Part shown: positions 14,312-32,349 of the stretch, piece after piece
Position numbering within the stretch: the stretch's first letter is position 1
Layout of the letters: the number at the start of each line of letters is the position of its first letter
DNA from: Bacilli bacterium
GTDB taxonomy: Bacteria > Bacillota_I > Bacilli_A > RFN20 > CAG-826
Direction of reading: 5' to 3'
Length of the DNA stretch: 64,000 nucleotides
Assembly: GCA_017468925.1 (NCBI GenBank)
Contig: JAFUHI010000009.1
Location: 274,162 to 338,161, forward strand
Made by a program: the position numbers and the translations under genes
Notes under the pieces: generated by a model
What the model was told of the DNA's origin: nothing
Seen by the model: the letters and a program-made list of their open reading frames with translations, nothing else
Databases searched by the model: none

Positions 14312-15751
14312 ATGAAAGTACTTTCAATTGATATATCCGCTTCAAGCGGAAGACTAATCGTCGTAGACCATACGAAAAACAATTTTGAATTTGAAGAAAT
14401 TTTTCGCTTCAAAAACGAGATGAAAATGGAGAATGGCCATTATAGATGGGACCAAGACTATATTCTTGAAAACATAAAAAAAGGCCTGGTAGAAGCTCTA
14501 AAAAAACATCCAGATATCGCTTCAATCGGAATAGATACCTGGGGAGTTGATTATGTTTTAATTGATGAGAATGGCAAGTCAATCGATAAAACCATCGCTT
14601 ATAGAGATCCTAGAAATGCCGAAGCGGCTGAAAGGCTCTTCAAAAAGCATTCATATTGGGAGATTTACAAGGAAAGCGGGATTCAATATTGCCCATTCAA
14701 TACGATATTCCAGCTTTTCGATGACATCCATAACAGGAAAATGGAATTCTCCAAATTCCTTTTGATGCCAGATTATCTTTCTTATGGATTAACGGGCGAA
14801 AAGAGACTAGAAGTCACAAATCTTTCAACTGGGGCGATATATGATCCCGTAAAGAAAGAAGTCTCTCCTTCTTTGCTTGATATGATTGGCTGCTCAAAAG
14901 ATAAGTTATGCAGAATAATTAGGCCCGGCGAAACGATTGGGATGGTTGATGTCGAAGGCAAGAAAATACCTCTAATCGCAGTTGCTAGCCACGACACCGC
15001 CTCAGCGGTCGGCTCATTATTCTTAGATGAAGACACCGCTTATATCAGCTCTGGCACTTGGTCTTTGTTGGGCTGCGAAGAAAAATCTCCAATAATCACC
15101 AAAGAAGGATATAAAGCCAACTTCACCAATGAAATCGGAATTAATGACAATGTCTGTTATTTAAAAAACATCATGGGTTTATTCATGATTCAGGAACTCA
15201 AGAAAGAATATGAGGTCACTAGACCTGGATTGAGTTTCCAAAACATTCTTGATGAAGCTACGGCGGTACAAAACGAAGAAAGATATGTCGATGTCGATTA
15301 TCCCCCATTCTCATATCCTGAACATATGAAAGATAAAGTTATCGAATATCTTGAAAAGACAAACCAATCAGTGGAAAATCTTTCCTTAGGAAACATCGCT
15401 AGAATCATATATCAATCCTTGGCGGTCAAATACGCGGAGGAATTGAAGAATCTAGAAACACTCCGTGGCAAGAGATTCAAGAGATTGGTATTAGTTGGCG
15501 GTGCGACCAATGTGCCATTATTGGAGCAAGCGATGGCGGATCTAATGGGCATAGAAATATTGATTGGCGAGAAAGAGGCGACCGTAGCGGGTAACGCCCT
15601 ATGCCAATTCATCGCCAATAAAGAATTCTCTTCTTTGGAAGGGGCAAGAAAAGCGTTATGGGATAGAGCAAAACATCAAATATTCATCCCTAACAAAGAC
15701 TTTGATTCTAAAAAGGTTATTGAGGCCTATAAGGCTGCAACAAATATATAA
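14312..15751 (+). CDS. rhaB: Rhamnulokinase (FGGY carbohydrate kinase family)
   Basis: 479 aa protein. Has the FGGY N-terminal phosphate-1 loop ([14 protein letters not shown]) and a C-terminal GGATN-like block (VGGATNV). The rhaB call, as opposed to another FGGY kinase, rests on adjacency to rhaA. Confidence 0.7.
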
Positions 15752-15765
15752 ATGAAAGGAAAATT

Positions 15766-17013
15766 ATGAGCACAAAGCAAGCTTACGAACTAGCCAAAGC
15801 GGAATACGCGAAATATGGCGTTGACACCGACAAGGCTTTAGAAGCGATGGAGAAAGTCGTTATTTCGCTTCACTGCTGGCAAGGAGACGATGTCAGAGGA
15901 TTTTTATTTAATGACGAGTTGTCTGGCGGCATCCAAACCACTGGAAATTACCCAGGCAGAGCGAGAACCATACAGGAACTAAGAAATGATTTGGAGAAAG
16001 TTCTTTCTTTGCTCCCCGGTCACTTCAAAGTCAATCTCCACGCGATTTACGCGGACACCAAAGAAAAGATTGATTTGGATCAATTAGAGCCAAAGCATTT
16101 CGCTTCTTGGGTCGAATGGGCCAAAAAGAACCATGTTGGACTTGATTTCAATCCAACTTGCTTCTCCCATCCAAAAGCCTCCAGCGGCTTCACTTTATCA
16201 AGCAATGACCCAGAAATCAGGAAATTCTGGATTGAGCACTGCAAAAGAAGCAGAAAGATCGGTGAATATTTCGGCCGTGAATTAGGCGAGCCATGCGTCA
16301 CCAACATTTGGGTGCCAGACGGCATGAAAGATACTCCAATCGATAGATTAGCCCCGAGAAAGAGACTCATGGAATCTCTTGATGAAATCTTGGAAGAGAA
16401 GATTGATCCAAAATACAATATTGATTCAGTCGAATCAAAATTATTCGGAATCGGCGTAGAATCCTACACTACTGGAAGCAATGAATTCTATATGGGATAT
16501 GCCACATCAAGACAAATCTCTTTGACGCTTGATTCTGGCCATTTCCATCCGACCGAAGTCATTTCCGATAAGATTCCTACAGTCTTGCTATACGTCCCAC
16601 ATTTGCTTCTCCACGTCTCTAGACCAGTGAGGTGGGATAGCGATCACGTTGTCGTCTTGGATGATGAATTAAACGAGATTGCTAGAAGCTTAGTGAGAAA
16701 CAACCTTATCGAGAAAACTTCGATTGGCCTTGATTATTTCGATGCCTCAATCAATAGAATCGCTGCATGGGTCATCGGTGTCAGAGCAACATTGACCGCT
16801 ATATTGAAAGCCTATTTGGATCCAATCGATTATTTGATGAAGGTCGAAAACGAAGGCAATTACACCGACAGATTGTTCTTGCAGGAAAGATTGAAGCAAC
16901 TCCCATATGGTGTTGTCTTTGATTATTATTGCGAGAAGCACGGCGTTAAGATTGGCCAAGATGCGCTCGATGAAATTCATAAATACGAGAAAGAAGTAAC
17001 TTCAAGGAGATAA
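15766..17013 (+). CDS. rhaA: L-rhamnose isomerase
   Basis: 415 aa protein. Length and the N-terminal region ([20 protein letters not shown]...LHCWQGDDV) match RhaA, which is about 419 aa. Lies directly downstream of the kinase. Confidence 0.85.
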
Positions 17014-17034
17014 AAACAATCCATAACCAACAAG

Positions 17035-17066
17035 AAGGCATCCTCGGGTGCCTTTTTTGTTTTTGC
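17035..17066 (+). terminator. Rho-independent terminator after rhaA
   Basis: A GC-rich hairpin (AAGGCATCC-TCG-GGTGCCTT) followed by TTTTTTGTTTTT, located 22 nt after the rhaA stop. Confidence 0.55.
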
Positions 17067-17280
17067 TCAGTTGAGTAATAACACAACGCAGCAAGTTTAT
17101 CGATGTCTATCAAAATTATAGAGAAAGTATTTCATTCCTTTAAGCGTGTTTATAAAGCACATACGGCTAGTTTGTTAAACCAAAAAAAGAATGAAGATGT
17201 ATTAGCGAGACTTCAATAGAACCCCACACCAAGAAGAATGCAAACACGTTAGTTGTGTTGATGAAAAATAATTTTTGATG

Positions 17281-17571
17281 ATTTATTTGAAAATGTTGTT
17301 TTTATTGGTTTTATATTCAATCCAACATAAAACAAATATCAACAAAAATTATGTAAAAATTATACATAATTTTTATAGTAAAACTCATCTCTATAATTAA
17401 ATAAATAATGTATATAAAAACCACATAAAACAACATACTAATACAACATAAATTTGCTTAAAAATGTTGGTTTTTGTGGGTTTTATGTTGGTTTTCTTTG
17501 TTTTTGTTGTTTTTTTGTGTTTGCTTTGTTTGTTTGTGTGTGTTATATTAGGCGCAGTAGGAAGAATCGAG
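17281..17571. promoter_or_regulatory. AT-rich promoter/operator region upstream of the GRE gene, with repeated ATGTTG(G/T)TTTT motifs and a GT-rich leader
   Basis: Seen directly. Copies of ATGTTGKTTTT occur at about 17284, 17464 and 17488. Reverse-complement copies (AACATAAAAC / AAAACAACAT) occur at about 17323 and 17425-17445. A roughly 100 nt stretch made only of G and T (17464-17545) precedes the RBS-ATG at 17572. Confidence 0.35.
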
Positions 17572-20100
17572 ATGCAAAAGTTTTACACAGAAAAAATCCA
17601 AAAGAGCGATCGTATAACGAGACTTGTAGATAACCTTTTCAAGAAAATGCCAGAGGTAGAAGCGGCTAGGGCTGTTTTGCTTACTGAATCATATAAGCAA
17701 ACAGAAAATGAACCAATCATTACTCGCCGCGGAAAAGCCTTTGCTCATATTCTTGATAACATTCCAATCATCATCCGCGATGAGGAATTGATTGTCGGTT
17801 CGACTACGTTAGCGCCAAGAGGTTGTCAAACATATCCAGAATTCTCCTATGAGTGGCTTGAAGCGGAATTCGACACCTTATCAACTAGGGTTGCCGACCC
17901 ATTCTATATTTCCGAAGAGACGAAGAAGACCCTCAAGGAAGTCAATAAATATTGGAAAGGCAAAACGACATCGGAACTCGCCATCTCTTACATGGATCCT
18001 AGAGCCTATACCGCTTTCTTGCATGAGATGTATACGACTGGCAATTATTTCTTCAACGGCGTTGGCCATATAACCGTCAATTATCCGAAAGTCATCAAAT
18101 ATGGATATCGCAGCATCATAAATGAGGCTTTGGAGGCCAAATCAAAATTGACTTTCTCCGATGCAGATTATCCAACTAGAATTGCTTTCTTGGATGCGGT
18201 CATAACATCGCTCAAGGCTGTTATTAGATACGCTAATAGATACAGCGAATTGGCCAAAAAGATGGCGGATGAGACAAATGATTCCAAACGCAGAGCCGAA
18301 TTATTGGAGATATCAAGAATCACCGCGAAAGTTCCTGAATATGGCGCGGAATCATTCTATGAGGCTTGCCAATCATTCTGGTTTGTCCAGCAATTATTGC
18401 AGCTTGAATCTTCAGGACATTCAATTTCCCCAGGCAGATTCGACCAATACATGTATCCATATTTCAAGAATGATTTTGATAAAGGCTTAATAACCAGAGA
18501 ATACGCTCAAGAATTATTGGATTGCATCTGGGTTAAACTCAACGATTTGAATAAATGCCGCGACTGCGTAAGCGCCGAAGGATTCGCGGGATATTCCTTA
18601 TTCCAAAACCTTATTGTCGGCGGTCAAGACGTAAACGGAGTTGATGCCACGAACGATTTGTCCTTCATGTGCATCACTGCTACAGAGCATGTCTTCTTGC
18701 CACAGCCAAGCTTCTCAATCCGCGTATGGAACGGATCGCCTCATTCATTGCTTATTAGAGCCGCTGATCTTACTAGAACCGGAATCGGCTTCCCAGCGTA
18801 TTACAACGATGAAGTCATTATTCCTCAATTAATATCACGCGGATTAAGCGTGCAAGATGCTAGAGACTATAACATCATCGGCTGCGTTGAACCTCAGAAG
18901 GCATTCAAGACCGAAGGATGGCACGATGCCGCATTCTTCAATATGTGCCGTCCACTAGAACTTGTCTTCTCCAACGGCGTTGATAAAGGCGTTCAAATCG
19001 GACCAAAGACAGGAGATGTCAGCACGTTTGATACATACGAGAAATTCGAGAACGCTTATAGAACCCAGATCAATTTCTTCATTCAATGCCTTGTCAATTC
19101 AATTAATTCAATTGATTACGCGCATAGAACCAGATGCCCATTGCCATTCGAATCATCGATGGTAGAGGATTGCATCGGTAGGGGCAAAGCCTTGCAAGAA
19201 GGTGGAGCCATCTACAATTTCTCCGGTCCTCAAGGATTTGGTGTCGCCAATATGGCGGATGCCATGTGGGCGATAAAGACACTCGTCTACGAGCAAAAGA
19301 AATACACCATCGAATTCTACAAAGAAGCGCTTGAAAACAATTATGGCGAAATGATGGATGAGCACCACGCCGAGAAATTGACCAAGGAAATTGTCAAAAA
19401 GCTCGCCGAAACTGGCAAAAACGTTAATAGAGAAGACATCATAAACATCTTCAATATGGTCAGAGAAAACAAATGCTCGCCAGAAAAGAAAGAAGCCTAT
19501 AGACGTCTAAAAGAAGACATCGAGGCTCTACCAAAATATGGAAACGACATCGAGGAGATAGACAACTTCGCACGCGAAATAACCTATTGTTATACGCGCC
19601 CGATGGAGCAATATAGAAACCCACGTGGAGGTATCTTCCAAGCGGGATTGTATCCTGTTAGTGCCAACGTGTTACTAGGTTCGCAAACCGGCCCAACACC
19701 GGATGCAAGACTTGGCTATACTCCTGTTGCCGATGGGGTCTCCCCAGCCGCCGGAAGAGATGTAAATGGACCAACTGCAGCATGTAATTCCGTCTCGCAT
19801 TTAGACCATTTCATCGCCTCAAACGGCACATTATTCAACATGAAATTCCACCCAACCGCGCTTGCGGGCACCCAGGGTTTAGAGAATTTCGTCTCTTTGG
19901 TCAGGGGTTACTTTGACCGCAAAGGCACGCACATGCAATTCAATGTCGTGTCCAGAGAGACGTTAAGGGATGCGCAAAAGCACCCAGAAAAATACAAGGG
20001 CTTAGTGGTCAGAGTTGCTGGCTATAGTGCCCTATTCACCACGTTATCCCGCGCCTTGCAGGATGATATCATAAGCCGCACCGAACAAGGAGAATTCTGA
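17572..20100 (+). CDS. Glycyl radical enzyme, probably B12-independent 1,2-propanediol dehydratase (PFL-like family)
   Basis: Has the C-terminal glycyl-radical motif RVAGYSALF and a PFL-like fold of about 842 aa. The computed ORF started at 17464 inside a G/T-only tract. The start was moved to the Met (MQKFYTEK) that is preceded by an AGGAAG ribosome-binding site. The substrate assignment is inferred from the neighbouring rhaBA genes, aldolase, PduP/PduL and BMC shell genes (GRM5-like). A choline TMA-lyase cannot be fully excluded from sequence alone. Confidence 0.85.
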   Translation: MQKFYTEKIQKSDRITRLVDNLFKKMPEVEAARAVLLTESYKQTENEPIITRRGKAFAHILDNIPIIIRDEELIVGSTTLAPRGCQTYPEFSYEWLEAEFDTLSTRVADPFYISEETKKTLKEVNKYWKGKTTSELAISYMDPRAYTAFLHEMYTTGNYFFNGVGHITVNYPKVIKYGYRSIINEALEAKSKLTFSDADYPTRIAFLDAVITSLKAVIRYANRYSELAKKMADETNDSKRRAELLEISRITAKVPEYGAESFYEACQSFWFVQQLLQLESSGHSISPGRFDQYMYPYFKNDFDKGLITREYAQELLDCIWVKLNDLNKCRDCVSAEGFAGYSLFQNLIVGGQDVNGVDATNDLSFMCITATEHVFLPQPSFSIRVWNGSPHSLLIRAADLTRTGIGFPAYYNDEVIIPQLISRGLSVQDARDYNIIGCVEPQKAFKTEGWHDAAFFNMCRPLELVFSNGVDKGVQIGPKTGDVSTFDTYEKFENAYRTQINFFIQCLVNSINSIDYAHRTRCPLPFESSMVEDCIGRGKALQEGGAIYNFSGPQGFGVANMADAMWAIKTLVYEQKKYTIEFYKEALENNYGEMMDEHHAEKLTKEIVKKLAETGKNVNREDIINIFNMVRENKCSPEKKEAYRRLKEDIEALPKYGNDIEEIDNFAREITYCYTRPMEQYRNPRGGIFQAGLYPVSANVLLGSQTGPTPDARLGYTPVADGVSPAAGRDVNGPTAACNSVSHLDHFIASNGTLFNMKFHPTALAGTQGLENFVSLVRGYFDRKGTHMQFNVVSRETLRDAQKHPEKYKGLVVRVAGYSALFTTLSRALQDDIISRTEQGEF

Positions 20101-20885
20101 TGGACGATTATCTTAAAACATCAGGAAGGATATTCGATATTCAACGATTCTCCGTCCACGATGGCCCTGGCATCAGAACGATAGTCTTCTTCAAAGGATG
20201 CTATCTAAGATGCAGATGGTGCTGCAACCCAGAAGGTCAGGAATTCTTCCCCCAGGAGCTGACGATGAATGGCAAAACCAAAACAGTCGGCAGAGACATT
20301 ACGGTGGAAGAAATCCTAGACATCGTTGAGAAAGACCGCATCTATTACAAAAGAAGCGGCGGCGGGCTCACGATATCCGGGGGCGAATGTCTAGGACAGG
20401 CTGACTTCGCTAGAGACCTTCTAAGAGGGGCTAAAGAAAGAGGCATTAACACAGCGATCGAATCAACTGGATTCGCTCCATGGGAGAAGATTGAGCCTCT
20501 AATCCCATATCTAGATGTCTATTTGATGGACATCAAACATATGGATTCCGCCAAACACAAAAGCTTCACCTCCCAACCAAACGAATTGATTCTTGAAAAC
20601 GCGAGGAAAATCGCCAAGAACTTCAAGAAATTGATCGTGAGAACGCCTGTCATCCCAACCTTCAATGACACAGAGGATGAGATAAGGGCTATAGCGAGAT
20701 ACGCCAAATCAATCGGGGTGGAGGAGATGCATTTGCTCCCATACCACAGACTAGGCAAAGACAAATATTATGGCCTTGGCAGAACATATTCCTTGGAGGA
20801 GATAGAACCTCCATCTAAAGAAAAGATGAACGCATTGCTCGACGTCGTTCTGCAAGAAGGGTTAAAAGGGCAGAAAGGAGGTTAA
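20100..20885 (+). CDS. Glycyl radical enzyme activating enzyme (radical SAM)
   Basis: 261 aa protein. Has the CX3CX2C radical-SAM motif (CYLRCRWCCNPEG) and a glycine-rich SAM site (GGGLTISGGE). Its start overlaps the GRE stop. Confidence 0.85.
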   Translation: MDDYLKTSGRIFDIQRFSVHDGPGIRTIVFFKGCYLRCRWCCNPEGQEFFPQELTMNGKTKTVGRDITVEEILDIVEKDRIYYKRSGGGLTISGGECLGQADFARDLLRGAKERGINTAIESTGFAPWEKIEPLIPYLDVYLMDIKHMDSAKHKSFTSQPNELILENARKIAKNFKKLIVRTPVIPTFNDTEDEIRAIARYAKSIGVEEMHLLPYHRLGKDKYYGLGRTYSLEEIEPPSKEKMNALLDVVLQEGLKGQKGG

Positions 20886-21265
20886 TGATGGAATTCGATA
20901 AACTTCAATCAAACGAGACGAAGACAAGGATTATTCAGGAAAGCGTTCCTGGAAAGCAAATAACGCTCGCTCATATCATCGCCAATCCAGATGAATTGCT
21001 CTATCGCAAGCTTGGGCTCGATCCGAATGTCGAATACGCATCAAAAGCAATCGGCATCATGACATTATGCCCATCAGAGACAGCGATAATCGCCGCCGAC
21101 ATATGCATGAAAGCAAGTGGTGCGAGAATGGGATTCGTCGATAGATTCTCAGGCACCGTCATCATCACCGGCACGGTATCCGAGGTCGAGGCATCGCTTA
21201 AAGCGGTCATGGAATTCTGCACTTACACATTGCGCTTCACCGTTTGCGACATAACGAAGACATAA
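20885..21265 (+). CDS. BMC shell protein, circularly permuted BMC domain (EutS/PduU type)
   Basis: 126 aa protein. The N-terminus (RIIQESVPGKQITLAHIIANPDELLYRKLGL) closely resembles the EutS/PduU N-terminal region. Confidence 0.7.
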   Translation: MMEFDKLQSNETKTRIIQESVPGKQITLAHIIANPDELLYRKLGLDPNVEYASKAIGIMTLCPSETAIIAADICMKASGARMGFVDRFSGTVIITGTVSEVEASLKAVMEFCTYTLRFTVCDITKT

Positions 21266-21711: not shown

Positions 21712-21722
21712 GGAGAAAAATT

Positions 21723-24233: not shown

Positions 24234-24236
24234 GGA

Positions 24237-24557: not shown

Positions 24558-24565
24558 GAGCGAAT

Positions 24566-24901
24566 ATGAGCAGGAATGCATTGGGATTCATAGAAACCTC
24601 AGGTGTAGTGGCTGCCATAGACGCTCTCGACATCATGGTCAAAAGCGCCAATGTGCGCTTCGTAACTTGGGAGAGGAAATTAGGTGGCAGACTAGTCACA
24701 ATCATCGTTGAAGGTGAAGTGGCTGCAGTCAATTCAGCGGTTGAAAACGCCTGCAATAGGTCGATAAAAAAACCGGCTGCCCACCTGGTCTTAGCTTCGC
24801 CCCACGAAGAGACATGGCGCATGGTTGAGATTAGCGCTTCTAGGCTCAAGAAGAAAGAAAAAGCTCAGCAAGAAGAAGGTTATCAAGACGTTCACTTCTG
24901 A
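24566..24901 (+). CDS. BMC-H shell protein with basic C-terminal tail
   Basis: 111 aa protein. Has a BMC domain ([25 protein letters not shown]) with an RKLGGRLV pore region. Carries a Lys-rich C-terminal extension of about 20 aa ([19 protein letters not shown]). Confidence 0.7.
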
Positions 24902-24912
24902 TAAAGGAAGGA

Positions 24913-25415
24913 AAGGAGGAGAGACAAATGGCACAACTCGAAGCATTAGGCATGGTTGAGACCAGAGGACTCGTCGCGGCTATCGAGGCCGCCGATGCCA
25001 TGGTCAAGGCTGCCAACGTGACCCTCATCGGCACCGAGAAAATCGGTAGCGGATTGGTGTCGGTCATGGTCCGCGGAGATGTCGGAGCAGTTCAAGCTGC
25101 GACAGAAGCGGGAGGCGCTAGAGCGCAAAAGCTTGGCGAAGTGATTGCGATTCACGTAATCCCACGCCCACATTCAGATGTCGAGAGGATCTTACCGACC
25201 CTCAAGCATAAAGAAGACTAAATAGGAGGAGAGACAAATGGCACAACTCGAAGCATTAGGCATGGTTGAGACCAGAGGACTCGTCGCGGCTATCGAGGCC
25301 GCCGATGCCATGGTCAAGGCTGCCAACGTGACCCTCATCGGCACCGAGAAGATCGGTAGCGGATTGGTGTCGGTCATGGTCCGCGGAGATGTCGGCGCGG
25401 TCAATGCAGCGACCG
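24913..25415 (+). repeat. Tandem direct duplication spanning the RBS and 5' ~175 nt of two pduA-like genes
   Basis: Seen directly. A block of about 190 nt including the ribosome-binding site (GGAGGAGAGACAAATGGCACAACTCGAAGC...GGTCCGCGGAGATGTCGG) occurs at 24913-25102 and again at 25223-25412. The two copies differ by a single A/G. Sequence downstream of the block has diverged. Confidence 0.9.
24928..25221 (+). CDS. pduA: BMC-H shell protein, PduA/PduJ type (copy 1)
   Basis: 97 aa protein. Canonical throughout: [55 protein letters not shown]...[14 protein letters not shown]. Confidence 0.88.
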
Positions 25416-25519
25416 AGGCTGGCGGAAACGCGGCTAGGAAGCTTGGCGAAGTGATCGCAGTCCACGTGATCCCACGCCCACACTCAGATGTCGAGAAGAT
25501 CTTACCGAAATTAGGTTAA
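25238..25519 (+). CDS. pduA: BMC-H shell protein, PduA/PduJ type (copy 2, tandem paralog)
   Basis: 93 aa protein. Its first 58 residues are identical to copy 1. The C-terminal third has diverged. Confidence 0.88.
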
Positions 25520-25589
25520 TCTTCACCTTGAAATCCCCGCCGCGACGCTTTGTTGCGGTGGGGTTATGGACACAGAAAGGAAGAAGCAA

Positions 25590-25871
25590 ATGATCGTAGG
25601 GAAAGTTATTGGTAGCGTAGTGTCTACCCGTAAAATGAACTCTTTGGTCGGAAGTAAACTTATGGTCGTTGAGCCTTTATCCGCGACCGAGGGTCCGAAA
25701 GAGAAAATCATCGCAATCGATAATATCGGTGCTGGCATCGGCGAGACAGTTTTGCTCGCTACCGGAAGCGCCGCTAGAATCGGTTCAAATATGCCTGATT
25801 CGCCAATCGATGCCGCAATAGTCGGTATCATCGACGATGAGATAGGCCTTAAAGGAGCCAATCTGTATTGA
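25590..25871 (+). CDS. BMC vertex pentamer protein (BMC-P; EutN/PduN/CcmL family)
   Basis: Has the N-terminal MIVGKVIGSVVST pattern of EutN/PduN, and is about 93 aa. The start was moved to the internal Met that is preceded by an AGGAAG ribosome-binding site. Confidence 0.75.
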   Translation: MIVGKVIGSVVSTRKMNSLVGSKLMVVEPLSATEGPKEKIIAIDNIGAGIGETVLLATGSAARIGSNMPDSPIDAAIVGIIDDEIGLKGANLY

Positions 25872-27196
25872 TGGATTTTGACGGTCTTAAACAATTGATG
25901 CGCGATAATGGCATCGTCGGTTGCGGCGGTGCTGGGTTTCCAAGTTATGCGAAACTCAATGACAAGGCAGATACCTTGATCATCAATTGCGCCGAATGCG
26001 AGCCGCTTTTGCGCTTGCATCGCCAGCTTATTGAAGTTAGGGCAAAAGAGATTGTCGAGACCGCCTCATTCATCGCAAAAACGATTGGCGCCAAAGAGGT
26101 CGTAATAGGCATCAAGGCCGCCTATAAAAAAGCGGTCGCCGCCTTAAGGAATCAAATAGGCGACTCAAATTTTGTTAGAATCCATCTTTTGCCTGAAGTT
26201 TATCCAGCAGGAGATGAATTGGTTCTAATCTATGAGACGACAAAAAGGGTGATTAGGCCAGGCCAATTGCCCGCAAGCGTCAACGTGCTCGTGTATAACG
26301 TTGAGACAATATATAACGTCTATCGCGCTTTGCATGGGCACCCTGTCACCCATAAATTCGTGACGGTCACAGGAGAAGTAAACCAGCCAGAAACATTCTA
26401 CGCCCCAATAGGAAGCAAGATATTCGGTTTGGTGAAACGCTCCGGAGGGCAGAAGATCGATGACCCAGCCTTCCTGATCGGTGGACCGATGATGGGATTC
26501 CTTGGAAGCGATCAAGACGTCGTTACCAAGACCACAAACGCCATCATTGTTTTGCCTAAGGACCACCCAGTGGTTTTAAGGAAGAAAATGAAGCCGAGAA
26601 TCGACCTAAAAAGAGCGATGGCCGCTTGCTCACAATGCAGTTATTGCACCGACATGTGCCCAAGGCATATGTTAGGCCATCCTATCGATCCAGCGGCCTT
26701 CATGAGAGTGGTCTCCAATCAAGATGCGCATAACGTAGGCCCATACCTCAACGCGAGATATTGTTCATCATGCGGGGTGTGTGAAGCTTATGCTTGCCAT
26801 CAGGGGTTATCGCCACGCATATTGCTAGGATTTGTTAAAAACAACATCCGGGCAAGCGGGATTAAATATCCAGATTATGATGGACCAGTCGTTCCAGATG
26901 AAGAAATGGATTTTAGGCGAGTTCCATTAAAAAGGCTCGTCGCCAGGCTTGATTTGGAGAAATACGCTGACCCAGCACCGATTTACGAAGAGCCAATCAA
27001 CGCGAAAGAAGTGGATATCAAATTACTTCAGCACGTTGGCAAAAAAGCAATACCAGTCGTCAAAATCAATGATCATGTTAAAGAGGGCGATATAATCGCC
27101 CATTACGATGATACATCGTTATCTGTCAATATACATGCATCGATCGATGGAACAGTGAGTGAAATCACAAGCACATACATAAGGATAAGAAAATAA
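25868..27196 (+). CDS. pduS: PduS-like RnfC-family Fe-S flavoprotein
   Basis: 442 aa protein. Has an RnfC/NqrA-like N-terminal region (GCGGAGFPSYAKL) and two Cys clusters (CSQCSYCTDMCP; CSSCGVCEAYAC) as in PduS. Lies in the BMC operon. Confidence 0.7.
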   Translation: MMDFDGLKQLMRDNGIVGCGGAGFPSYAKLNDKADTLIINCAECEPLLRLHRQLIEVRAKEIVETASFIAKTIGAKEVVIGIKAAYKKAVAALRNQIGDSNFVRIHLLPEVYPAGDELVLIYETTKRVIRPGQLPASVNVLVYNVETIYNVYRALHGHPVTHKFVTVTGEVNQPETFYAPIGSKIFGLVKRSGGQKIDDPAFLIGGPMMGFLGSDQDVVTKTTNAIIVLPKDHPVVLRKKMKPRIDLKRAMAACSQCSYCTDMCPRHMLGHPIDPAAFMRVVSNQDAHNVGPYLNARYCSSCGVCEAYACHQGLSPRILLGFVKNNIRASGIKYPDYDGPVVPDEEMDFRRVPLKRLVARLDLEKYADPAPIYEEPINAKEVDIKLLQHVGKKAIPVVKINDHVKEGDIIAHYDDTSLSVNIHASIDGTVSEITSTYIRIRK

Positions 27197-27204
27197 TAAG
27201 CAAA

Positions 27205-27756
27205 ATGGCAAAGGCAATTGGACTAATAGAATATAAGACCGTATCTAGCGGTATGACCGCCACCGATATAATGGCAAAGTCCGCGGATATCGAGATATTG
27301 CAAGCCGAGACGGTGTGTCCAGGCAAATATTTCGCATTGGTCGAAGGCGAAGTCGCCGCAGTCCAATCTGCCGTTAATGCCGCCAAAAAAGCCATCCCCG
27401 AGAAATTAATCGATGATTTTGTTTTAGGCAATCCGCATGAATCGATATTCCGCGCCATCTGGGGAACAACAGAAGTTGATCAACCTGAAGCGCTAGGGAT
27501 ATTAGAGACATATTCAATTGCCCAAGCTATTGTCGGGGCGGATATTGCCGCCAAGGCTGCAGACGTCAAACTCATCGAATTAAGGCTAGGAAGAGGGATG
27601 TGTGGAAAATCATATCTATTAATCACCGGCCAAGTGGCGGCAGTGACGATGGCTATAGAAAAGGCCAAATCCAGCGCCGGCGAATACGGTATGTATTTAG
27701 ATAGCTCCGTAATCGCTAGACCGGATATGAAGGCCTGGAGAAAATTCGTGATGTAA
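27205..27756 (+). CDS. pduT: BMC-T shell protein (tandem BMC domains), PduT type with putative Fe-S-ligating pore cysteine
   Basis: 183 aa protein with two BMC domains (IGLIEYKTVSSG...; LGILETYSIAQAIVGADIAAKAADV). Cys in CPGKYF matches the position of the 4Fe-4S ligand in PduT. Confidence 0.8.
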   Translation: MAKAIGLIEYKTVSSGMTATDIMAKSADIEILQAETVCPGKYFALVEGEVAAVQSAVNAAKKAIPEKLIDDFVLGNPHESIFRAIWGTTEVDQPEALGILETYSIAQAIVGADIAAKAADVKLIELRLGRGMCGKSYLLITGQVAAVTMAIEKAKSSAGEYGMYLDSSVIARPDMKAWRKFVM

Positions 27757-27764
27757 GGAAAATT

Positions 27765-28553
27765 ATGTTTAGTTTAGAGAGGCGAAACTTAATAATCCAA
27801 AGGCTCAATCTTGAAGGCCGCATCATCGTTTCCGATTTGTCCAAAGAATTCAATGTGACAGAAGAGACGATTAGACGCGACATCGAGAAGCTTGAGCTTG
27901 AAGGATTAGCCACCAAAACATATGGTGGTGCGGTTTCGACCAGCTCCCAAAATAGAGATTTGCCTTACAAAATAAGAAAGAAATCAAATGTAGAATCGAA
28001 ACAGAGAATCGCCGCTAGAGTCGCTCAGATGATCAACGATGGCGATCAATTGATGTTTGATGCTTCCTCGACATCTTTGTATGTCGTAAGGCAAATAAAG
28101 CATCTAAATAACATCACAATCATAACGAATTCCATCGAGATTATGTTGGAGTTAGGCGATAAAACCGGATGGAATATTCTATCGACCGGAGGATCGCTTA
28201 GAGAAGGGGCGTATTCTCTTTCTGGCTCCTCAGCCGAAAGAATGATACGCGACCACCATGTCGATTTGGCAATTTGCAGCGCCAAAGGAATAGATGGAAT
28301 TATGGGTATCACCGAAAGCAATGAGAAGGATGCTGAAATCAAAAAAGCAATCTTCTCTGCTGCGACAAAGCGAATCCTAGCGATTGACCATTCCAAATTC
28401 GATAAAATATCGTTCATCAAAGTATGCGACATCAAAGATGTCGATGTAATAGTCACAGATAAAAACCCAGGCATGGCGTGGGAGAGAAGAATCTCCGATA
28501 GCAGAGCCGAGTTGATTGTATATGGAGAAAAAAATGAGAATACTAGTAATTAA
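27765..28553 (+). CDS. DeoR/GlpR-family transcriptional regulator
   Basis: 262 aa protein. Has an N-terminal HTH (RRNLIIQRLNLEGRIIVSDLSKEFNVTEETIRRDIEKLE) and a C-terminal DeoR sugar-phosphate-binding domain. Confidence 0.8.
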   Translation: MFSLERRNLIIQRLNLEGRIIVSDLSKEFNVTEETIRRDIEKLELEGLATKTYGGAVSTSSQNRDLPYKIRKKSNVESKQRIAARVAQMINDGDQLMFDASSTSLYVVRQIKHLNNITIITNSIEIMLELGDKTGWNILSTGGSLREGAYSLSGSSAERMIRDHHVDLAICSAKGIDGIMGITESNEKDAEIKKAIFSAATKRILAIDHSKFDKISFIKVCDIKDVDVIVTDKNPGMAWERRISDSRAELIVYGEKNENTSN

Positions 28554-29733
28554 TTCAGGGTCTTCATCACTCAAATATCAATTGTTTGAGATGAATTCCG
28601 GCAAAATCCTCGCCAAAGGTTTATGTGAAAGAATCGGAACCGATGGTTTTATAACGCATAAAGTCCCAGGAAAAGAGGATTATAGCTCCTCAAAGGATTT
28701 CCCAACCCATTATGAAGCGTTAAGTGAAGTCTTCTCATTATTGGTTGATAAAGAGAAAGGTGTATTGAAATCCATCGATGAAATAGATGCGGTTGGACAC
28801 CGTGTCGCCCATGGCGGGGAAAGATTCAAAGAATCATCTATCGTCAATGAGGATATGATCTCTTATCTCGAATCAATCGTTCCAATCAACCCGCTTCATG
28901 GCCCGGCCGCCATCAAAGGTATGAAAGCCTGCCTTGAATTGCTCCCAAATACACCGCAGACAGCGACATTTGACACATCATTTTATTCTTCATTTAAGAA
29001 AAGCCGCTTTATCTATGGCTTGCCTTATGAATGCTATGAAAAAGATGGGGTTAGAAGATATGGCTTCCATGGAACTAGCCATCGTTTTGTAAGCGCCCAA
29101 GCTGCTGAATACTTAAATAAACCGATAACATCTTTAAAGATAATTACCTGCCACTTAGGAAATGGCAGTTCGATAAGTGCGGTGGAAAATGGCGTTGCCA
29201 TCGATACCACGATGGGATTCACCCCACAGGAAGGGATAATCATGGGAACAAGAAGTGGCAGTATTGACCCAACCATCATCCCTTACCTCATGAAGAAGAG
29301 AAATCTAAATCCCGATCAAATGACGGATTTATTAAATAAACAATCAGGACTTTTGGGAATAAGCGGCATTTCAAATGATCTAAGGAATTGCGTTGAAGCC
29401 GCTTCAAAAGGAAACGAGAGAGCTCAATTAGCCTTGGATATCCTAACCGACGGTGTCAAAAAATATATCGGTGGATTCGCCGCGCTTATGAATGGGCTTG
29501 ATGTATTGGTCTTCACCGCTGGAATCGGCGAGAATTCCACAATTGCTCGTGAAATGATTTGCGACAAAATGGACTACCTAGGCATAAAGATAGATAAAGA
29601 AAAGAACAATAATTTCAGAAGAGGCGTGATCGAAGATATATCTGCAGCCGATTCAAAAGTAAAAATATTAGTCATTCCTACAAATGAGGAATACATGATA
29701 GCTTTGGATACCCAAAAACTAGTCAATCGATAA
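28534..29733 (+). CDS. Acetate/propionate kinase (PduW-like)
   Basis: The MRILVINSGSSSLKYQLF N-terminus is the acetate-kinase signature. Start moved to the Met that follows a GGAGAAAAAA ribosome-binding site. Confidence 0.85.
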   Translation: MRILVINSGSSSLKYQLFEMNSGKILAKGLCERIGTDGFITHKVPGKEDYSSSKDFPTHYEALSEVFSLLVDKEKGVLKSIDEIDAVGHRVAHGGERFKESSIVNEDMISYLESIVPINPLHGPAAIKGMKACLELLPNTPQTATFDTSFYSSFKKSRFIYGLPYECYEKDGVRRYGFHGTSHRFVSAQAAEYLNKPITSLKIITCHLGNGSSISAVENGVAIDTTMGFTPQEGIIMGTRSGSIDPTIIPYLMKKRNLNPDQMTDLLNKQSGLLGISGISNDLRNCVEAASKGNERAQLALDILTDGVKKYIGGFAALMNGLDVLVFTAGIGENSTIAREMICDKMDYLGIKIDKEKNNNFRRGVIEDISAADSKVKILVIPTNEEYMIALDTQKLVNR

Positions 29734-29745
29734 GGAGGCGTTATT

Positions 29746-31197
29746 ATGGCAAACATCGATGAAAGACAAGTAAAAGAAATAATTGAACGCATTGTTAAGG
29801 AATATAAAGGGGCGGATACTACACCAAGCACCGGCTACACACCAACCTCTTACAATGGTCGTAAGTTCATCGGCATTTTTTCCGATATGAATGAAGCGAT
29901 AGAGGCAGCCAATAAAGGATATCAAGCAATCCGTTCAATGAGCGTTGAGCAAAGAGAGAAAATAATCACAGAGATTAGAAAACTTACTAGGGAAGAAGCT
30001 TGGACTTTAGCGGAGATTGGTGTTTCTGAAACCCATATGGGAAGAGTAGAGCACAAGAGGCTCAAACATATCCTTGTCGCTGATAAAACACCAGGCACCG
30101 AAGATATAGTGAGCAACGCCAAAACTGGTGATAACGGCCTCACTCTTATCGAAATGGCACCATTTGGTATTGTCGGAAGCATCACCCCATCCACAAACCC
30201 AAGCGAAACAGTCATCTGCAACTCAATCGGCATGATTGCCGCGGGGAATGGGGTCGTTTTTAATCCACATCCAAATGCGGTCTGCACATCGAACTATGCG
30301 GTTGATTTAGTCAATAGAGCTTGCAAAGCTGCAGGTGGCCCAGAGATTTTGGTCGCCTCAATGGATAAACCAACAATGGAATCGAGCGCAGTGATGATGA
30401 AACATCCTCTAATAAAATTATTGGTCTGCACAGGAGGTCCTGGAGTAGTCAAAGCCGTATTAAGCAGTGGCAAGAAAGCGATTGGGGCTGGAGCAGGAAA
30501 TCCACCTGTCATTGTGGATGATACAGCCGATATTGCTAAAGCCGCCAAAGACATAATCGATGGCTGCACATTCGATAACAACCTACCTTGCATCGCCGAA
30601 AAAGAAGTCTTCGTTTTCAACAATGTCGCTGACGATTTGATTAGAGGCATGAAAAAGGCTGGATCATATGAGATAAACCGTGCCCAAGCCGATCAATTGG
30701 CGAAAATAGTGCTTGTGTCCAAAACCGGAAAAGACGGAAAAGTAACCAAATCAGTCAATAGGGATTGCGTTGGTAGAGACGCCAAAGTCTTGCTTGAGAA
30801 AATCGGCATTCACGTTGGCGATGAGATAAGATGTATCATCGCAGAAGTTCCATTCGAGCATGATTTCGTCCAAAATGAGCTTATGATGCCAATCCTTGGA
30901 ATCGTCAGAGTCAGAAATATTGATGAAGCAATCGATCTAGCTTGCAAGGCGGAAGGAGGCAGAAGGCATTCCGCTCACATGCATTCAAAGAATATCGATA
31001 ACCTATCTAGATTCGCCAAAGCAGTAGAAACAACAATCTTTGTGAAGAATGCACCAAGTTACGCCGGCATTGGTTTTGGTGGCGAAGGCCACACGACTTT
31101 CACGATCGCTGGCCCAACTGGGGAAGGCATCACATCCGCTAAAAGCTTCACTAGACAAAGACGCTGCGTTATGGCGGATAGTTTCAGAATCATTTAA
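29746..31197 (+). CDS. pduP: CoA-acylating aldehyde dehydrogenase (PduP/EutE family) with N-terminal encapsulation peptide
   Basis: 483 aa protein. ALDH superfamily with a catalytic Cys context (FDNNLPCIAEKE). The N-terminal amphipathic ERQVKEIIERIVKEY is followed by a Thr/Pro/Ser linker. Confidence 0.85.
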   Translation: MANIDERQVKEIIERIVKEYKGADTTPSTGYTPTSYNGRKFIGIFSDMNEAIEAANKGYQAIRSMSVEQREKIITEIRKLTREEAWTLAEIGVSETHMGRVEHKRLKHILVADKTPGTEDIVSNAKTGDNGLTLIEMAPFGIVGSITPSTNPSETVICNSIGMIAAGNGVVFNPHPNAVCTSNYAVDLVNRACKAAGGPEILVASMDKPTMESSAVMMKHPLIKLLVCTGGPGVVKAVLSSGKKAIGAGAGNPPVIVDDTADIAKAAKDIIDGCTFDNNLPCIAEKEVFVFNNVADDLIRGMKKAGSYEINRAQADQLAKIVLVSKTGKDGKVTKSVNRDCVGRDAKVLLEKIGIHVGDEIRCIIAEVPFEHDFVQNELMMPILGIVRVRNIDEAIDLACKAEGGRRHSAHMHSKNIDNLSRFAKAVETTIFVKNAPSYAGIGFGGEGHTTFTIAGPTGEGITSAKSFTRQRRCVMADSFRII

Positions 31198-31221
31198 AAA
31201 GAAGGGAGTTTTGCGGGGTTT

Positions 31222-31893
31222 ATGGACCAAAAACAGATTGAAAGCATCGTTAGAGATGTTTTGAATGAATACAAAAACGGAAGCAAAATATCTACCTCTA
31301 GTGATTTTGGCGATATCCCAGTCGGCGTTTCAGCTCGCCATATCCATCTCACCCAGGAACATGTAGATATTCTTTTTGGAAAGGGATATCAGCTAACCAA
31401 ACTTAAAGATCTTTCTCAGCCAGGCCAATTCGCCTGCAAAGAACAATTGACTTTAATCGGCCCTTCCTTGAAGGCGATCGAAGGAGTGAGAGTCCTTGGG
31501 CCAGTTAGAAAAAAATCACAGGTCGAAATATCGAAAACTGACTCATTTGTCCTCAAGGTCAATCCGCCGGTCAGAGAAAGCGGCGATGTGGAGGGAAGTG
31601 CCCCAATCACCATCCTAGGGCCAAAAGGCGTAGTGGAACTTAAAGAAGGATGCATTCTCGCCAACCGTCATATTCATATGTCTCCTGCGGACGCTCAAAG
31701 ATTCGGCGTCAAAGATGGTGATTATGTAGCTACCGATACGGTTGGAAATGGAAAAAGAACAACTTTATGGGATGTCCAAATAAGGGTTTCTGACAAATTT
31801 GTGTTGGAGATGCATCTAGATACAGATGATGCAAATGCCTGTGGCATTGGAAATGGTTCCAAAGTAAAATTGATAAAGAACAAGGAGAGGTAA
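31222..31893 (+). CDS. pduL: Phosphate propanoyltransferase PduL with N-terminal encapsulation peptide
   Basis: 223 aa protein. Two PduL-repeat His blocks (GVSARHIHLTQEHVD; ANRHIHMSPADAQRFG). The N-terminus is QKQIESIVRDVLNEY followed by a Ser-rich linker. Confidence 0.8.
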   Translation: MDQKQIESIVRDVLNEYKNGSKISTSSDFGDIPVGVSARHIHLTQEHVDILFGKGYQLTKLKDLSQPGQFACKEQLTLIGPSLKAIEGVRVLGPVRKKSQVEISKTDSFVLKVNPPVRESGDVEGSAPITILGPKGVVELKEGCILANRHIHMSPADAQRFGVKDGDYVATDTVGNGKRTTLWDVQIRVSDKFVLEMHLDTDDANACGIGNGSKVKLIKNKER

Positions 31894-31898
31894 AAGCC

Positions 31899-32303
31899 AT
31901 GAATAACGAAGAAGCTAGCAAATTATTATCATTATTATCAGATCCAAATCGTTTGCTTATTGTCACTTTATTAAAAGATAAGCATAAGATGGCGGCAAAT
32001 GAATTCCTTTCCTCGCTCACATGCAAGCAAGCCACCTTATCCCACCATTTAACAGAGATGGCTGGCGCAGGACTATTAACCTTCAAGAAAAAAGGGAACA
32101 AAATCTTCTATTCCATGAATAATAGGAAATTTAACGAACTACTCAATTTCCTTGGCAAACTGAGCCAAAAAGAGAAAGAAGAGATAAAAGAAGAACCTAA
32201 AGTCGAGGTCGAAGAGGAAAAGAAAGAGGTCTATCGCGTTGTCGATAGCGACATCATCAAACCAGACCCAGTCAAAATTGAACTTCCAGTCTGGCTCTTA
32301 TAA
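31899..32303 (+). CDS. ArsR/SmtB-like winged-helix transcriptional regulator with Lys/Glu-rich tail
   Basis: 134 aa protein. HTH pattern (LLSDPNRLLIVTLLKDKHKMAANEFLSSL...LSHHLTEMAGAGLL). Starts 6 nt after the pduL stop. Confidence 0.5.
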   Translation: MNNEEASKLLSLLSDPNRLLIVTLLKDKHKMAANEFLSSLTCKQATLSHHLTEMAGAGLLTFKKKGNKIFYSMNNRKFNELLNFLGKLSQKEKEEIKEEPKVEVEEEKKEVYRVVDSDIIKPDPVKIELPVWLL

Positions 32304-32320
32304 TTTCTTAAAAGAAGATA

Positions 32321-32349
32321 AAACCGCTACAGATTGTGGCGGTTTTTTG
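32321..32349 (+). terminator. Rho-independent terminator closing the BMC operon
   Basis: Hairpin AAACCGC-tacagattgtg-GCGGTTT followed by a T-run, 18 nt after the ArsR-like stop. Confidence 0.6.

Follow-up and report, generated by a model that had tools for sequence, protein, structure and literature searches.

Which class of microcompartment is encoded beside rhamnose genes in the genome of an uncultured gut Bacilli bacterium, and how did it come to stand there? The question is raised by a stretch of 64,000 nucleotides (positions 274,162 to 338,161 of contig JAFUHI010000009.1, assembly GCA_017468925.1), which was analysed as a whole and is called the window here. Its + strand was found to contain, at 14312–32349, an uninterrupted series of intact open reading frames (ORFs), in which rhaB and rhaA are followed by a terminator and then by an operon of 20 genes (17572–32303, 14.8 kb) for a glycyl radical enzyme (GRE) associated microcompartment (GRM). 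In our study, we found that the region very probably encodes a canonical bacterial microcompartment (BMC) of the class GRM5 in an uncultured gut Bacilli genome, beside two enzymes for the entry of L-rhamnose. The GRM5 operon is intact but typical, and is unusual only in its uncultured gut Bacilli host and in the adjoining rhamnose genes.

Families were assigned to all 22 genes with Pfam and NCBIfam models. An earlier sequence-only reading of the same DNA had listed the genes, and every listed ORF was present on the + strand in its place with the named family recovered. The list was incomplete in one respect, as the twentieth gene of the operon, an ArsR-like helix-turn-helix gene, was missing from it; that reading had ended the region at 32349 because a hairpin with a T-run (~32322–32349) ends past this gene. 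The features are as follows.

14312–15751, +: rhaB-like FGGY sugar kinase, probable rhamnulokinase (Pfam FGGY_N/FGGY_C; TIGR02627, 407 bits)
15766–17013, +: rhaA, L-rhamnose isomerase (Pfam RhaA, 682 bits; NF002203, 695.8 bits)
17032–17057, +: intrinsic terminator after rhaA (hairpin with 11-bp stem, then T-run)
17417–17571, +: putative GRM promoter/operator region (TRF, inverted repeats, upstream alignment)
17572–20100, +: glycyl radical 1,2-propanediol dehydratase, 842 aa (PFL-like and Gly_radical; 5I2A)
20100–20885, +: GRE-activating radical-SAM enzyme, 261 aa (Radical_SAM/Fer4_12; TIGR02494)
20885–21265, +: EutS/PduU-type (permuted) BMC-H shell protein (Pfam BMC; NF012012)
21244–21711, +: EutP/PduV family GTPase (PduV-EutP, 166 bits; TIGR02528)
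21723–22532, +: class II (FucA-type) aldolase, 269 aa (Aldolase_II, residues 12–188)
22544–23023, +: GlcG/DUF336 (HbpS-like) protein (PF03928, 116.7 bits)
23025–24233, +: Zn-dependent medium-chain (MDR) alcohol dehydrogenase (ADH_N and ADH_zinc_N)
24237–24557, +: BMC-H H1, atypical, with insertion (Pfam BMC, E = 4e-19)
24566–24901, +: BMC-H H2, charged C-terminal extension (Pfam BMC, E = 9e-21)
24928–25221, +: BMC-H H3, PduA/EutM-like (Pfam BMC, 99.5 bits; EutM model, 126 bits)
25238–25519, +: BMC-H H4, PduA/EutM-like (Pfam BMC, 101 bits; EutM model, 124 bits)
25566–25871, +: BMC-P vertex protein, EutN/CcmL (PF03319, 102 bits)
25868–27196, +: PduS-like flavo-FeS oxidoreductase (Complex1_51K, SLBB, Fer4_17, RnfC_N)
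27205–27756, +: PduT-type BMC-T, tandem BMC domains (two BMC domains, 149.6 bits; eut_PduT best in NCBIfam)
27765–28553, +: DeoR-family regulator (HTH_DeoR and DeoRC)
28516–29733, +: acetate/propionate kinase, PduW-like (Acetate_kinase, 472 bits; TIGR00016, 486 bits)
29746–31197, +: PduP-type CoA-acylating aldehyde dehydrogenase (Aldedh; NF011927, 666.8 bits)
31222–31893, +: PduL phosphotransacylase (PTAC, 258 bits; NF011652, 263.9 bits)
31899–32303, +: ArsR-like winged-helix protein with acidic/basic tail, last gene of the operon (HTH_20/HTH_5)
32322–32349, +: terminator-like hairpin and T-run ending the operon (read from the sequence AAAACCGCTACAGATTGTGGCGGTTTTTTG)

Class of the microcompartment

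The GRM5 class is defined by a GRE of the 1,2-propanediol dehydratase type and by an activase that, uniquely among GRMs, is devoid of a ferredoxin-like insertion (Ferlez 2019, PMC6325248), together with a PF00596 aldolase, a PF00107/PF08240 lactaldehyde reductase, and PduS and PduT in all loci with no GrpU (PMC6325248, PMC4207490, PMC3557285). A DeoR regulator and DUF336 are ancillary genes of the class (Axen 2014, PMC4207490), and DeoR is its regulator type (PMC4207490, PMC3557285). The operon was found to contain a GRE (PF02901 and PF01228) with its cognate activase (PF04055) in a shell-gene locus, a class II aldolase (PF00596) bearing an encapsulation peptide (EP) at its C-terminus, a Zn-dependent MDR dehydrogenase, an adjacent PduS and PduT pair with no GrpU, a core of acylating aldehyde dehydrogenase and PduL, a shell of BMC-H, BMC-P as well as BMC-T proteins, and the DeoR and DUF336 genes. 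The assignment to GRM5 in the sequence-only reading stood, as an aldolase, a lactaldehyde reductase and a glycyl radical propanediol dehydratase lie beside rhaBA and the published hallmarks are all present.

By alignment and profile scores, the GRE is of the 1,2-propanediol dehydratase type and not CutC. In a PDB search, its best solved relative was the Roseburia inulinivorans 1,2-propanediol dehydratase 5I2A (1263 bits; 64% identity, gap-free, over 835 aligned residues), followed by the B12-independent glycerol dehydratase (987 bits) and by CutC structures (~514 bits). Numbered from the start at 17572, the protein follows the 5I2A numbering exactly, its N-terminus aligning to 5I2A residue 6. 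It contained conserved H166, which we take to be an active-site residue, the C438-x-E440 loop (GCVEP) and, in the motif RVAGYSA, the glycyl residue G817. C438 and E440 have described roles (PMC13450708). The NCBIfam equivalog models of CutC (TIGR04394), HypD and sulfopropanediol dehydratase scored 591, 570 and 657 bits against cut-offs of 1050, 1100 and 1000, respectively, and these identities, as well as that of glycerol dehydratase, were rejected on scores. The broad PFL2-3 subfamily model was the only one to pass its cut-off; no equivalog model for propanediol dehydratase was present among the NCBIfam matches of the GRE, hence none that could confirm the assignment. A choline lyase, which the sequence-only reading had named as the outcome that would overturn it, was not found, given the identity to 5I2A and the CutC score, and the choline classes GRM1 and GRM2 were rejected on the same score and on the much lower PDB scores of CutC structures.

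The GRE residues ~593–649 (~57 aa) align to 5I2A and are skipped in the two-stretch alignment to the Clostridium butyricum glycerol dehydratase. An internal insertion of ~60 aa is the predicted EP of the GRM3, GRM4 and GRM5 dehydratases, and the GRM5 enzyme has no N-terminal EP (PMC6325248), and on this alignment residues ~593–649 are that EP-like insertion, as is characteristic of GRM5. The true start of the GRE is most likely the ATG at 17572, giving 842 aa. In the long ORF (17464–20100), codons 1–36 are translated T/G-rich promoter DNA (MLVFVGFMLVFF...), a ribosome-binding site AGGAAG lies 7 nt before the ATG, the 5I2A alignment begins just past Met37 of the long ORF, and the NCBI gene call for an identical protein is 842 aa. 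The promoter DNA at 17464–17571 has no stop in the GRE frame, and many automatic calls run to 878 or 854 aa, carrying a spurious hydrophobic N-terminus that begins with MLVFVGFMLVFF; the 90% cluster of this protein mixes 842-, 854- and 878-aa versions.

The activase scored 295.6 bits on TIGR02494 (cut-off 174) in two stretches, the best of which places residues 60–253 on profile positions 97–292. Its CX3CX2C motif is CYLRCRWC, no extra Cys cluster was present, and Radical_SAM and Fer4_12 were its only Pfam matches. In the insertion-bearing NCBIfam models, the best stretch starts at profile position ~90–106 for residues ~54–65, so that the insertion region is skipped. Judged from these profiles, the activase is devoid of the ~70-aa ferredoxin-like insertion, as in GRM5. 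The propanediol-only classes GRM3, GRM4 and GRM6 were rejected on this feature of the activase and on the presence of an EP-bearing aldolase and a Zn-dependent alcohol dehydrogenase (Zn-ADH), and the B12-dependent PDU type was rejected as no PduCDE or PduGH families were found among the Pfam matches of the scanned window ORFs.

The shell set consists of the EutS-type protein, four BMC-H proteins (24237–25519), a BMC-P and a two-domain PduT-type BMC-T. The EutS-type protein scored 113.9 bits on the NCBIfam EutS model NF012012, below the cut-off of 123; it was rejected as a GrpU, the pore motif G-x-C-P-Q-N/H being missing, and GxCPQ[NH] was present in none of the shell proteins of the operon. 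The GSG pore and RPH motifs are present in H3, and PduT keeps the pore Cys38. The shell proteins are canonical, and the loss of conserved BMC residues, which the sequence-only reading had also considered, was not found.

The aldolase contained a C-terminal EP, SELVEEITKRVMAALK, and an amphipathic C-terminus is common to 76 related aldolases; EPs at this end of GRM5 aldolases are known (PMC4594438). The Zn-ADH contained an N-terminal EP, YEIEELVKKVLGEL, with a helix that is kept in 81 of 81 loci, and the Sutter 2021 supplement provides a dedicated EP profile, made from 197 sequences, for the Zn-ADH of GRM5. N-terminal EPs were also found in PduP (RQVKEIIERIVKEY) and PduL (QIESIVRDVLNEY), and an EP-like N-terminal helix in the GlcG/DUF336 protein, all conserved among related loci; across the set, EP-like helices were kept in 50–81 related loci. 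These helices suggest that the cargo enzymes are encapsulated. The kinase is devoid of an EP. PduP and PduL scored 666.8 bits (NF011927, cut-off 403) and 263.9 bits (NF011652, cut-off 209), the kinase 486 bits (TIGR00016, cut-off 293) and EutP/PduV 138.6 bits (TIGR02528, cut-off 138.35), and PduS contained two Cys4 motifs, CSQCSYCTDMCP and CSSCGVCEAYAC. The EutP/PduV gene may start at 21265 instead of 21244 (deposited gene call, 148 aa), and the kinase gene probably starts at 28534 (deposited gene call, 399 aa).

In the linker of the aldolase (~residues 231–245) a motif HPA[ND]xC-x(4-14)-C[HP]xC-x(1-6)-C was found, here HPANVCLRVKEGKPSCHGCGGTC, which is conserved in the tails of 73 of 76 related aldolases (L004–L083, the related loci described below). 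This Cys/His pattern suggests a metal or Fe-S site. The linker has been described as having no sequence conservation, yet it is the most Cys-rich of the linkers in the published table (Aussignargues 2015, PMC4594438).

The sequence-only reading had regarded the lack of a PduQ-type Fe-ADH, PduM and EutJ as the mark of a variant. This lack is the published norm of GRM5, in which the alcohol dehydrogenase is of the Zn type and not of the Fe type or PduQ (Petit 2013, PMC3557285; Axen 2014, PMC4207490) and in which the locus table of C. phytofermentans and R. inulinivorans has no PduM or EutJ (PMC3557285). The Zn-ADH is the lactaldehyde reductase of GRM5 (PMC6325248) and by analogy would act as such here, in place of an Fe-ADH.

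Related loci, host and origin

A scan with the Zn-ADH over one-genome-per-species contigs confirmed at least 542 relatives, of which the best 80 (L004–L083; Zn-ADH 76–88% identical, full length) were annotated against the window proteins. Three recurrent gene orders were found among these best 80 loci. The order of the window was exact in many metagenome-assembled genomes (MAGs) of Acutalibacteraceae and Oscillospiraceae; in the classical Lachnospiraceae order, PduP precedes the ADH and PduL follows the BMC-H genes. An in-operon kinase was present in a subset (L004, L005, L010, L014, L054, L076, and L078). The features for which the locus had been proposed as a lineage or variant worth documenting are mostly ordinary, and the gene order recurs in many Clostridia genomes.

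The GRM5 loci of C. phytofermentans (Cphy_1174–1187) and R. inulinivorans share with the window the GRE propanediol dehydratase, the activase without ferredoxin insertion, a PduU/EutS-type shell protein, the FucA-type aldolase with C-terminal EP, the Zn-ADH, PduA/PduK-like BMC-H, PduN, PduS, PduT, PduP, PduL and DeoR, and PduCDE, PduQ, PduM and EutJ are absent from both. In the window, PduP and PduL follow DeoR, whereas in C. phytofermentans and R. inulinivorans they take the Lachnospiraceae positions given above. The window operon further contains EutP and GlcG/DUF336, along with a propionate kinase and the ArsR-like gene; it has rhaBA directly upstream and belongs to a Bacilli MAG instead of the Lachnospiraceae. 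The Oscillospirales-type loci (for example L014, L054, L076, and L078) have the same order as the window, GRE-AE-EutS-EutP-aldolase-GlcG-ZnADH-BMC-H array-BMC-P-PduS-PduT-DeoR-(kinase)-PduP-PduL, where AE is the activase, with a protein identity of 50–89% and the same T/G-repeat promoter architecture, but they have no terminal ArsR-like gene and no rhaBA, and their hosts are Clostridia. The sister locus is L004 (JAZRZI010000011.1), from another 'Bacilli bacterium' MAG, which is 63–96% identical per protein and likewise contains the kinase and, at the 3′ end, an ArsR-like gene; unlike the window, it is flanked by an ABC transporter and a phosphatase, has no rhaBA, and carries an extra PduA-like BMC-H copy.

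More distant systems show other combinations. The Pdu BMC of Listeria monocytogenes, also of the class Bacilli, leads from rhamnose through 1,2-propanediol and propionaldehyde to propionate and propanol, inside a BMC, as in the window (PMC8386454); it uses the B12-dependent PduCDE with the aldolase and lactaldehyde reductase outside the organelle, whereas the window has a GRE and an EP-bearing aldolase and reductase. The PVM and PVM-like BMCs have a homologous class II aldolase with C-terminal EP, DeoR, acetate kinase and a link to fucose and rhamnose (PMC4207490), but they process lactaldehyde directly and have no GRE, whereas the window has a GRE and its activase. Divergent aldolases (53–54% identical) with a different tail were found in L026, L070 and L077, where the order is aldolase-(GlcG)-PduP-ZnADH-shell-PduL-BMC-P-PduS-PduT, GlcG being absent in L070. 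No GRE was found in the sequence examined of these three loci, which for L026 reaches only ~3.8 kb upstream from the ADH. The three may be variants, GRM5-like or PVM-like, without the radical enzyme.

The PcrA, LigA, GatA and GatB proteins of the window carry the deposited label 'MAG: Bacilli bacterium'. Against 5.8 billion database proteins, the next-best PcrA was only ~61% identical, and every organism-named match was a 'Bacilli bacterium'. The proposal of a Mollicutes/Erysipelotrichia-like host is only loosely supported by the Bacilli label of the MAG and of the PcrA matches. A literature search under the group names RF39 and RFN20 yielded no paper that ties them to BMCs. Erysipelotrichia are missing from the accessible part of the Sutter 2021 supplements; the lack of Erysipelotrichia or gut Bacilli among the GRM5 hosts there is not conclusive. 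The catalogue itself lists 216 GRM5 loci. By the submitters' labels, 76 of the best 80 loci are of Clostridia type, the rest being L004, L066 (Coriobacteriaceae) and L067 and L071 ('Bacillota bacterium').

The operon may have come into this lineage from elsewhere. A neighbour-joining tree was built from concatenated GRE, Zn-ADH and PduP (1698 columns) of 47 loci picked by ADH similarity. The window and L004 formed a pair in 100/100 bootstraps, which lay inside an Oscillospirales-type clade in 100/100; the pair joined L054 and L076 in 88/100, and was sister to the whole clade in only 3/100. The GC content at third codon positions (GC3) of the GRM genes was 0.40–0.66 (most genes up to PduT, ~0.48–0.55), compared with roughly 0.30–0.48 in the flanks. 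Because of the nested tree, the contrast between PcrA and GRM identities (the latter 63–96% to L004 and 47–89% to Oscillospirales loci), the unrelated genomic contexts and the GC3, the data suggest a horizontal acquisition from Oscillospirales-type Clostridia into Bacilli. Among the 80 related loci, the ArsR-like gene was found only in L004 (19217–19660; 35% identity, same position), and it appears to have been added in the Bacilli branch. The ArsR-like winged-helix protein of the window has a long charged tail.

Two other accounts of this origin were weighed. Vertical inheritance in Bacilli, or movement from Bacilli to Clostridia, would explain why two different Bacilli MAGs carry sister loci that share the extra ArsR-like gene, and it would sit easily with the modest difference in GC3 from the host; we consider it quite unlikely, as the Bacilli pair is nested in the Oscillospirales-type clade with the bootstrap values given above, the great majority of the best loci are Clostridia-labelled, and the window and L004 lie in unrelated contexts. 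It is barely conceivable that an assembly or binning artefact joined a GRM5 fragment from Clostridia to backbone DNA of a Bacilli genome, even though the source is metagenomic, the gut samples being ERZ27256836, SRR12529324 and SRR12529329, and the GC of the operon is above that of its flanks. The junction epimerase-PPIase-rhaBA-GRE recurs in two contigs, the 572-kb L001 from ENA and the Logan contig L002; rhaA and the GRE are joined likewise in L003, from a second Logan run, and the downstream junction PduL-ArsR-hydrolase was seen in L001. All eight window proteins that were looked up, from housekeeping and GRM genes, were deposited under consecutive accessions (MBQ7995424-53, locus tags IJ247_) from a single NCBI Bacilli MAG, its contigs measuring 570–572 kb. 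A chimeric assembly is thus very unlikely, because the junctions recur in other contigs and the proteins were deposited from one MAG. Horizontal acquisition from Clostridia is the reading that we retain, and some points weigh against it: the contrast in GC3 is modest, with the kinase, PduP and PduL inside the range of the flanks, the tree is a neighbour-joining one, and the taxon labels are the names that submitters gave to their MAGs.

A GRM5 locus of the Lachnospiraceae order, with a Zn-ADH 77% identical, was also found in L066, a contig of a Coriobacteriaceae bacterium (CAVJHW010000029.1, Actinomycetota), which reflects either a further transfer between phyla or an error of binning. Among the Pfam matches of the flanking ORFs of the window, none was to an integrase or transposase family. 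The rest of the window contained gatCAB, ligA, smpB, ecfA1A2T-truA and, immediately downstream of the GRM (34016–47987), a large surface-polysaccharide cluster, which encodes a Wzy-like protein, glycosyltransferases, a UDP-sugar dehydrogenase, epimerases and an FnlA-like dehydratase. The Wzy-type and surface-polysaccharide genes hint at a walled cell and are compatible with a Mollicutes-like one too. Several ORFs of 500–660 aa in this cluster had no Pfam match (34016–35995, 37851–39494, and 43915–45435). At 48281–50177 lie a SatD-like protein, matched below threshold (26 bits, cut-off 29), and a neighbouring ORF of 361 aa, and a 550-aa ORF lies just before smpB (54512–56164); the Pfam matches of these ORFs were likewise absent or sub-threshold. 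The alpha/beta hydrolase at 32397–33296 was tried as the GRM5 'hydrolase' of Axen 2014; it stands beside none of the other loci and was treated as a host gene.

Putative promoter and operator region

The sequence-only reading had described rhaA and the GRE as separated only by a terminator and the operon as fused to the rhamnose genes. The 558-nt gap was found to carry a putative promoter/operator region as well. The word fused is too strong because the gap contains a strong terminator and a separate promoter region, so that rhaBA is a separate transcription unit, and because L004, the nearest relative of the operon, has no rhaBA. The hairpin after rhaA was the top + strand match of the terminator scan, and the terminal hairpin at 32322–32349 was missed by this consensus scan.

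Tandem repeat analysis with TRF showed 3.3 copies of AAAACAACAT at 17417–17452, facing 5.4 copies of its reverse complement ATGTTGGTTTT at 17464–17518. The repeats run into a putative -35 element TTTGCT (17520–17525), followed with an 18-nt spacer by an extended -10 element TGtTATATT (17541–17549) and by the ribosome-binding site of the GRE at 17559–17564. When 22 GRM5 upstream regions were aligned with MAFFT, the Clostridia loci were found to share T/G repeats around TTGACA...TAnAAT, in the layout ...CTTTGTTTT..TTCTGTTTTT.TnTTGGTTTT-N4-TTGACA-N4-TGTGGTTTTG-N3-TAnAAT, often with an inverted AAAACCACA copy ~100 nt upstream. Besides the window, this architecture was present upstream of the GRE in L004, L009, L013, L016, L018, L020, L023, L029, L032, L037, L038, L040, L042, L044, L045, L051, L052, L058, L073, L078, and L081. 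Phased T/G-rich units of ~10 nt (TTGGTTTT / TGTGGTTTT / CTTTGTTTT) flank and fill the spacer between -35 and -10.

The T/G-rich repeats are probably the operator array of the DeoR-family regulator of the operon. A regular expression for the repeat family matched 1.69 times per 250 nt upstream of GREs and 0.41 times per 250 nt in the remaining intergenic DNA of these loci, a ~4-fold difference in density, and at least two matches were present in 26 of 52 GRE upstream regions. The comparison is not independent, as the motif was defined from these same sequences, and this counts against the assignment. A search of the window with a single 10-mer operator was too degenerate (22 matches, 7.6 expected), and its sole cluster was at 17417–17513. 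It also counts against the assignment that promoter and operator were recognised by sequence pattern alone. An Rfam scan found no riboswitch or leader RNA in the whole window. The leader at 17285–17575 was tried as a structured RNA and its fold was not compelling (z = -1.98); the inverted repeats are better read as DNA operators because they lie upstream of the putative promoter. No description of a conserved GRM5 promoter repeat architecture was found in the literature on GRM5 that was consulted.

Rhamnose genes and the predicted pathway

RhaA scored 695.8 bits on NF002203, above the equivalog cut-off of 572. The FGGY kinase scored 407 bits on the rhamnulokinase model TIGR02627 (cut-off 528) and 121 bits on the fuculokinase model. 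The best FucA model of NCBIfam gave the aldolase 117 bits (cut-off 264) and the RhaD model 52 bits, no equivalog cut-off being reached. No second aldolase (rhaD or fucA) was found among the Pfam-scanned ORFs of the 64-kb window, and for this reason rhaBA would depend, at least locally, on the aldolase of the microcompartment. Among the best 80 relatives, a directly adjacent upstream rhaB-rhaA pair was found only in the window's own lineage. L053 contained rhaA ~2.3 kb upstream of its GRM5 GRE, with two other ORFs between; an FGGY kinase and an L-fucose isomerase follow DeoR in L031, and in L065, L072 and L074 the neighbour is a kinase alone. The homologous locus of C. phytofermentans was induced 15–87 fold on fucose and rhamnose (PMC3557285), and this species forms BMCs and produces both propanol and propionate (summary in PMC6325248).

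The gene content, families, catalytic residues, EP-like helices, synteny and phylogeny described above, taken with the established knowledge of GRM5 (PMC6325248, PMC3557285), point to the following pathway; substrates, encapsulation, regulation and the direction of transfer were assigned from sequence and by analogy. In the cytosol, RhaA would convert L-rhamnose to L-rhamnulose, which RhaB would phosphorylate to L-rhamnulose-1-phosphate. The EutS-type, the four BMC-H, the BMC-P and the PduT proteins would form the shell, and cargo would be recruited by amphipathic EPs, which lie C-terminally in the aldolase, N-terminally in Zn-ADH, PduP and PduL and perhaps in GlcG, and within the chain of the GRE. 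The encapsulated class II aldolase would cleave rhamnulose-1-phosphate (or fuculose-1-phosphate) to dihydroxyacetone phosphate and L-lactaldehyde, the Zn-ADH would reduce lactaldehyde to 1,2-propanediol with NADH, and the GRE, activated by the radical-SAM activase, would convert propanediol to propionaldehyde. PduP would then oxidise propionaldehyde to propionyl-CoA and regenerate NADH; with the lumenal NAD+/NADH loop closed in this way, a PduQ-type ADH would be unnecessary. PduL would form propionyl-phosphate and recycle CoA, and the kinase, having no EP, would yield propionate and ATP outside the shell. PduS and PduT may relay electrons across the shell, for example for the reduction of the activase, and DeoR probably binds the 10-nt T/G-rich repeats overlapping the promoter in response to a sugar phosphate.

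Different substrates have to be weighed against this pathway. If the GRE were another eliminase (glycerol dehydratase, CutC, HypD or sulfopropanediol dehydratase), the organelle would handle a different substrate; the passing of the PFL2-3 subfamily model only, the missing propanediol dehydratase equivalog among the matches and the second place of glycerol dehydratase in the PDB search would suit this, but it is highly improbable in view of the gap-free identity to a characterised propanediol dehydratase, the scores of the CutC, HypD and sulfopropanediol dehydratase models far under their cut-offs, the ~57-aa insertion, which is typical of BMC propanediol dehydratases and absent from the C. 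butyricum glycerol dehydratase, and the aldolase and lactaldehyde reductase of the operon, which supply propanediol. It is unlikely, though less remote a prospect, that the microcompartment serves mainly fucose or free 1,2-propanediol and that rhaBA adjoins it by coincidence, feeding a cytosolic aldolase elsewhere. Neither rhaD nor another aldolase lies near rhaBA within the 64 kb, in C. phytofermentans both sugars induce the homologous locus, whose aldolase has been assigned both substrates (PMC3557285), and L053 likewise has rhaA close upstream; in favour of a coincidence stand the terminator of rhaBA and the separate promoter of the GRM, the unrelated flanks of the closest homologous operon (L004), the kinase with L-fucose isomerase, or kinase alone, beside other GRM5 loci, and the higher scores of the aldolase on FucA models than on RhaD.

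The reading that we prefer remains a GRM5 organelle that would receive its substrate from rhamnose, and several points weigh against it. The link to rhamnose is one of adjacency only. The two rhamnose genes are a separate unit, which L004 does not have, and other GRM5 loci lie beside fucI; RhaB is under the rhamnulokinase cut-off, and no transporter or mutarotase was found in the window. As the aldolase reaches no equivalog cut-off, it may prefer either rhamnulose-1-phosphate or fuculose-1-phosphate. Since C. phytofermentans makes propanol too, a propanol dehydrogenase, this Zn-ADH or one elsewhere, may be needed. The support for this organism is wholly computational. With these points in mind, we put forward only tentatively, as a proposal more apt to fail than to hold, that an uncultured gut Bacilli lineage, possibly one of the former 'Mollicutes' gut groups, obtained a whole Oscillospirales-type GRM5 locus horizontally, added an ArsR-type second regulator and, in the species of the window, placed the locus directly after rhaBA, so that the encapsulated aldolase would be its sole rhamnulose-1-phosphate aldolase and rhamnose catabolism would pass obligatorily through the BMC.

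The established picture of GRM5 function, in which gut anaerobes obtain propionate and propanol by fermenting fucose and rhamnose from plants and mucin, with the toxic aldehydes contained, is unchanged by this locus. What is new beyond the known class is the host lineage with the evidence for transfer, one lineage-specific regulator gene, and the adjacency of rhaBA. The array of 10-nt T/G-rich repeats offers a testable DeoR operator and a candidate inducible promoter part, and together with the Cys/His motif of the aldolase it may prove more useful than the locus itself. With this locus, a GRM5 family otherwise dominated by Clostridia gains an uncultured Bacilli host, and the locus would be a clean example of the horizontal transfer of a whole organelle, with 15 kb and 20 genes.

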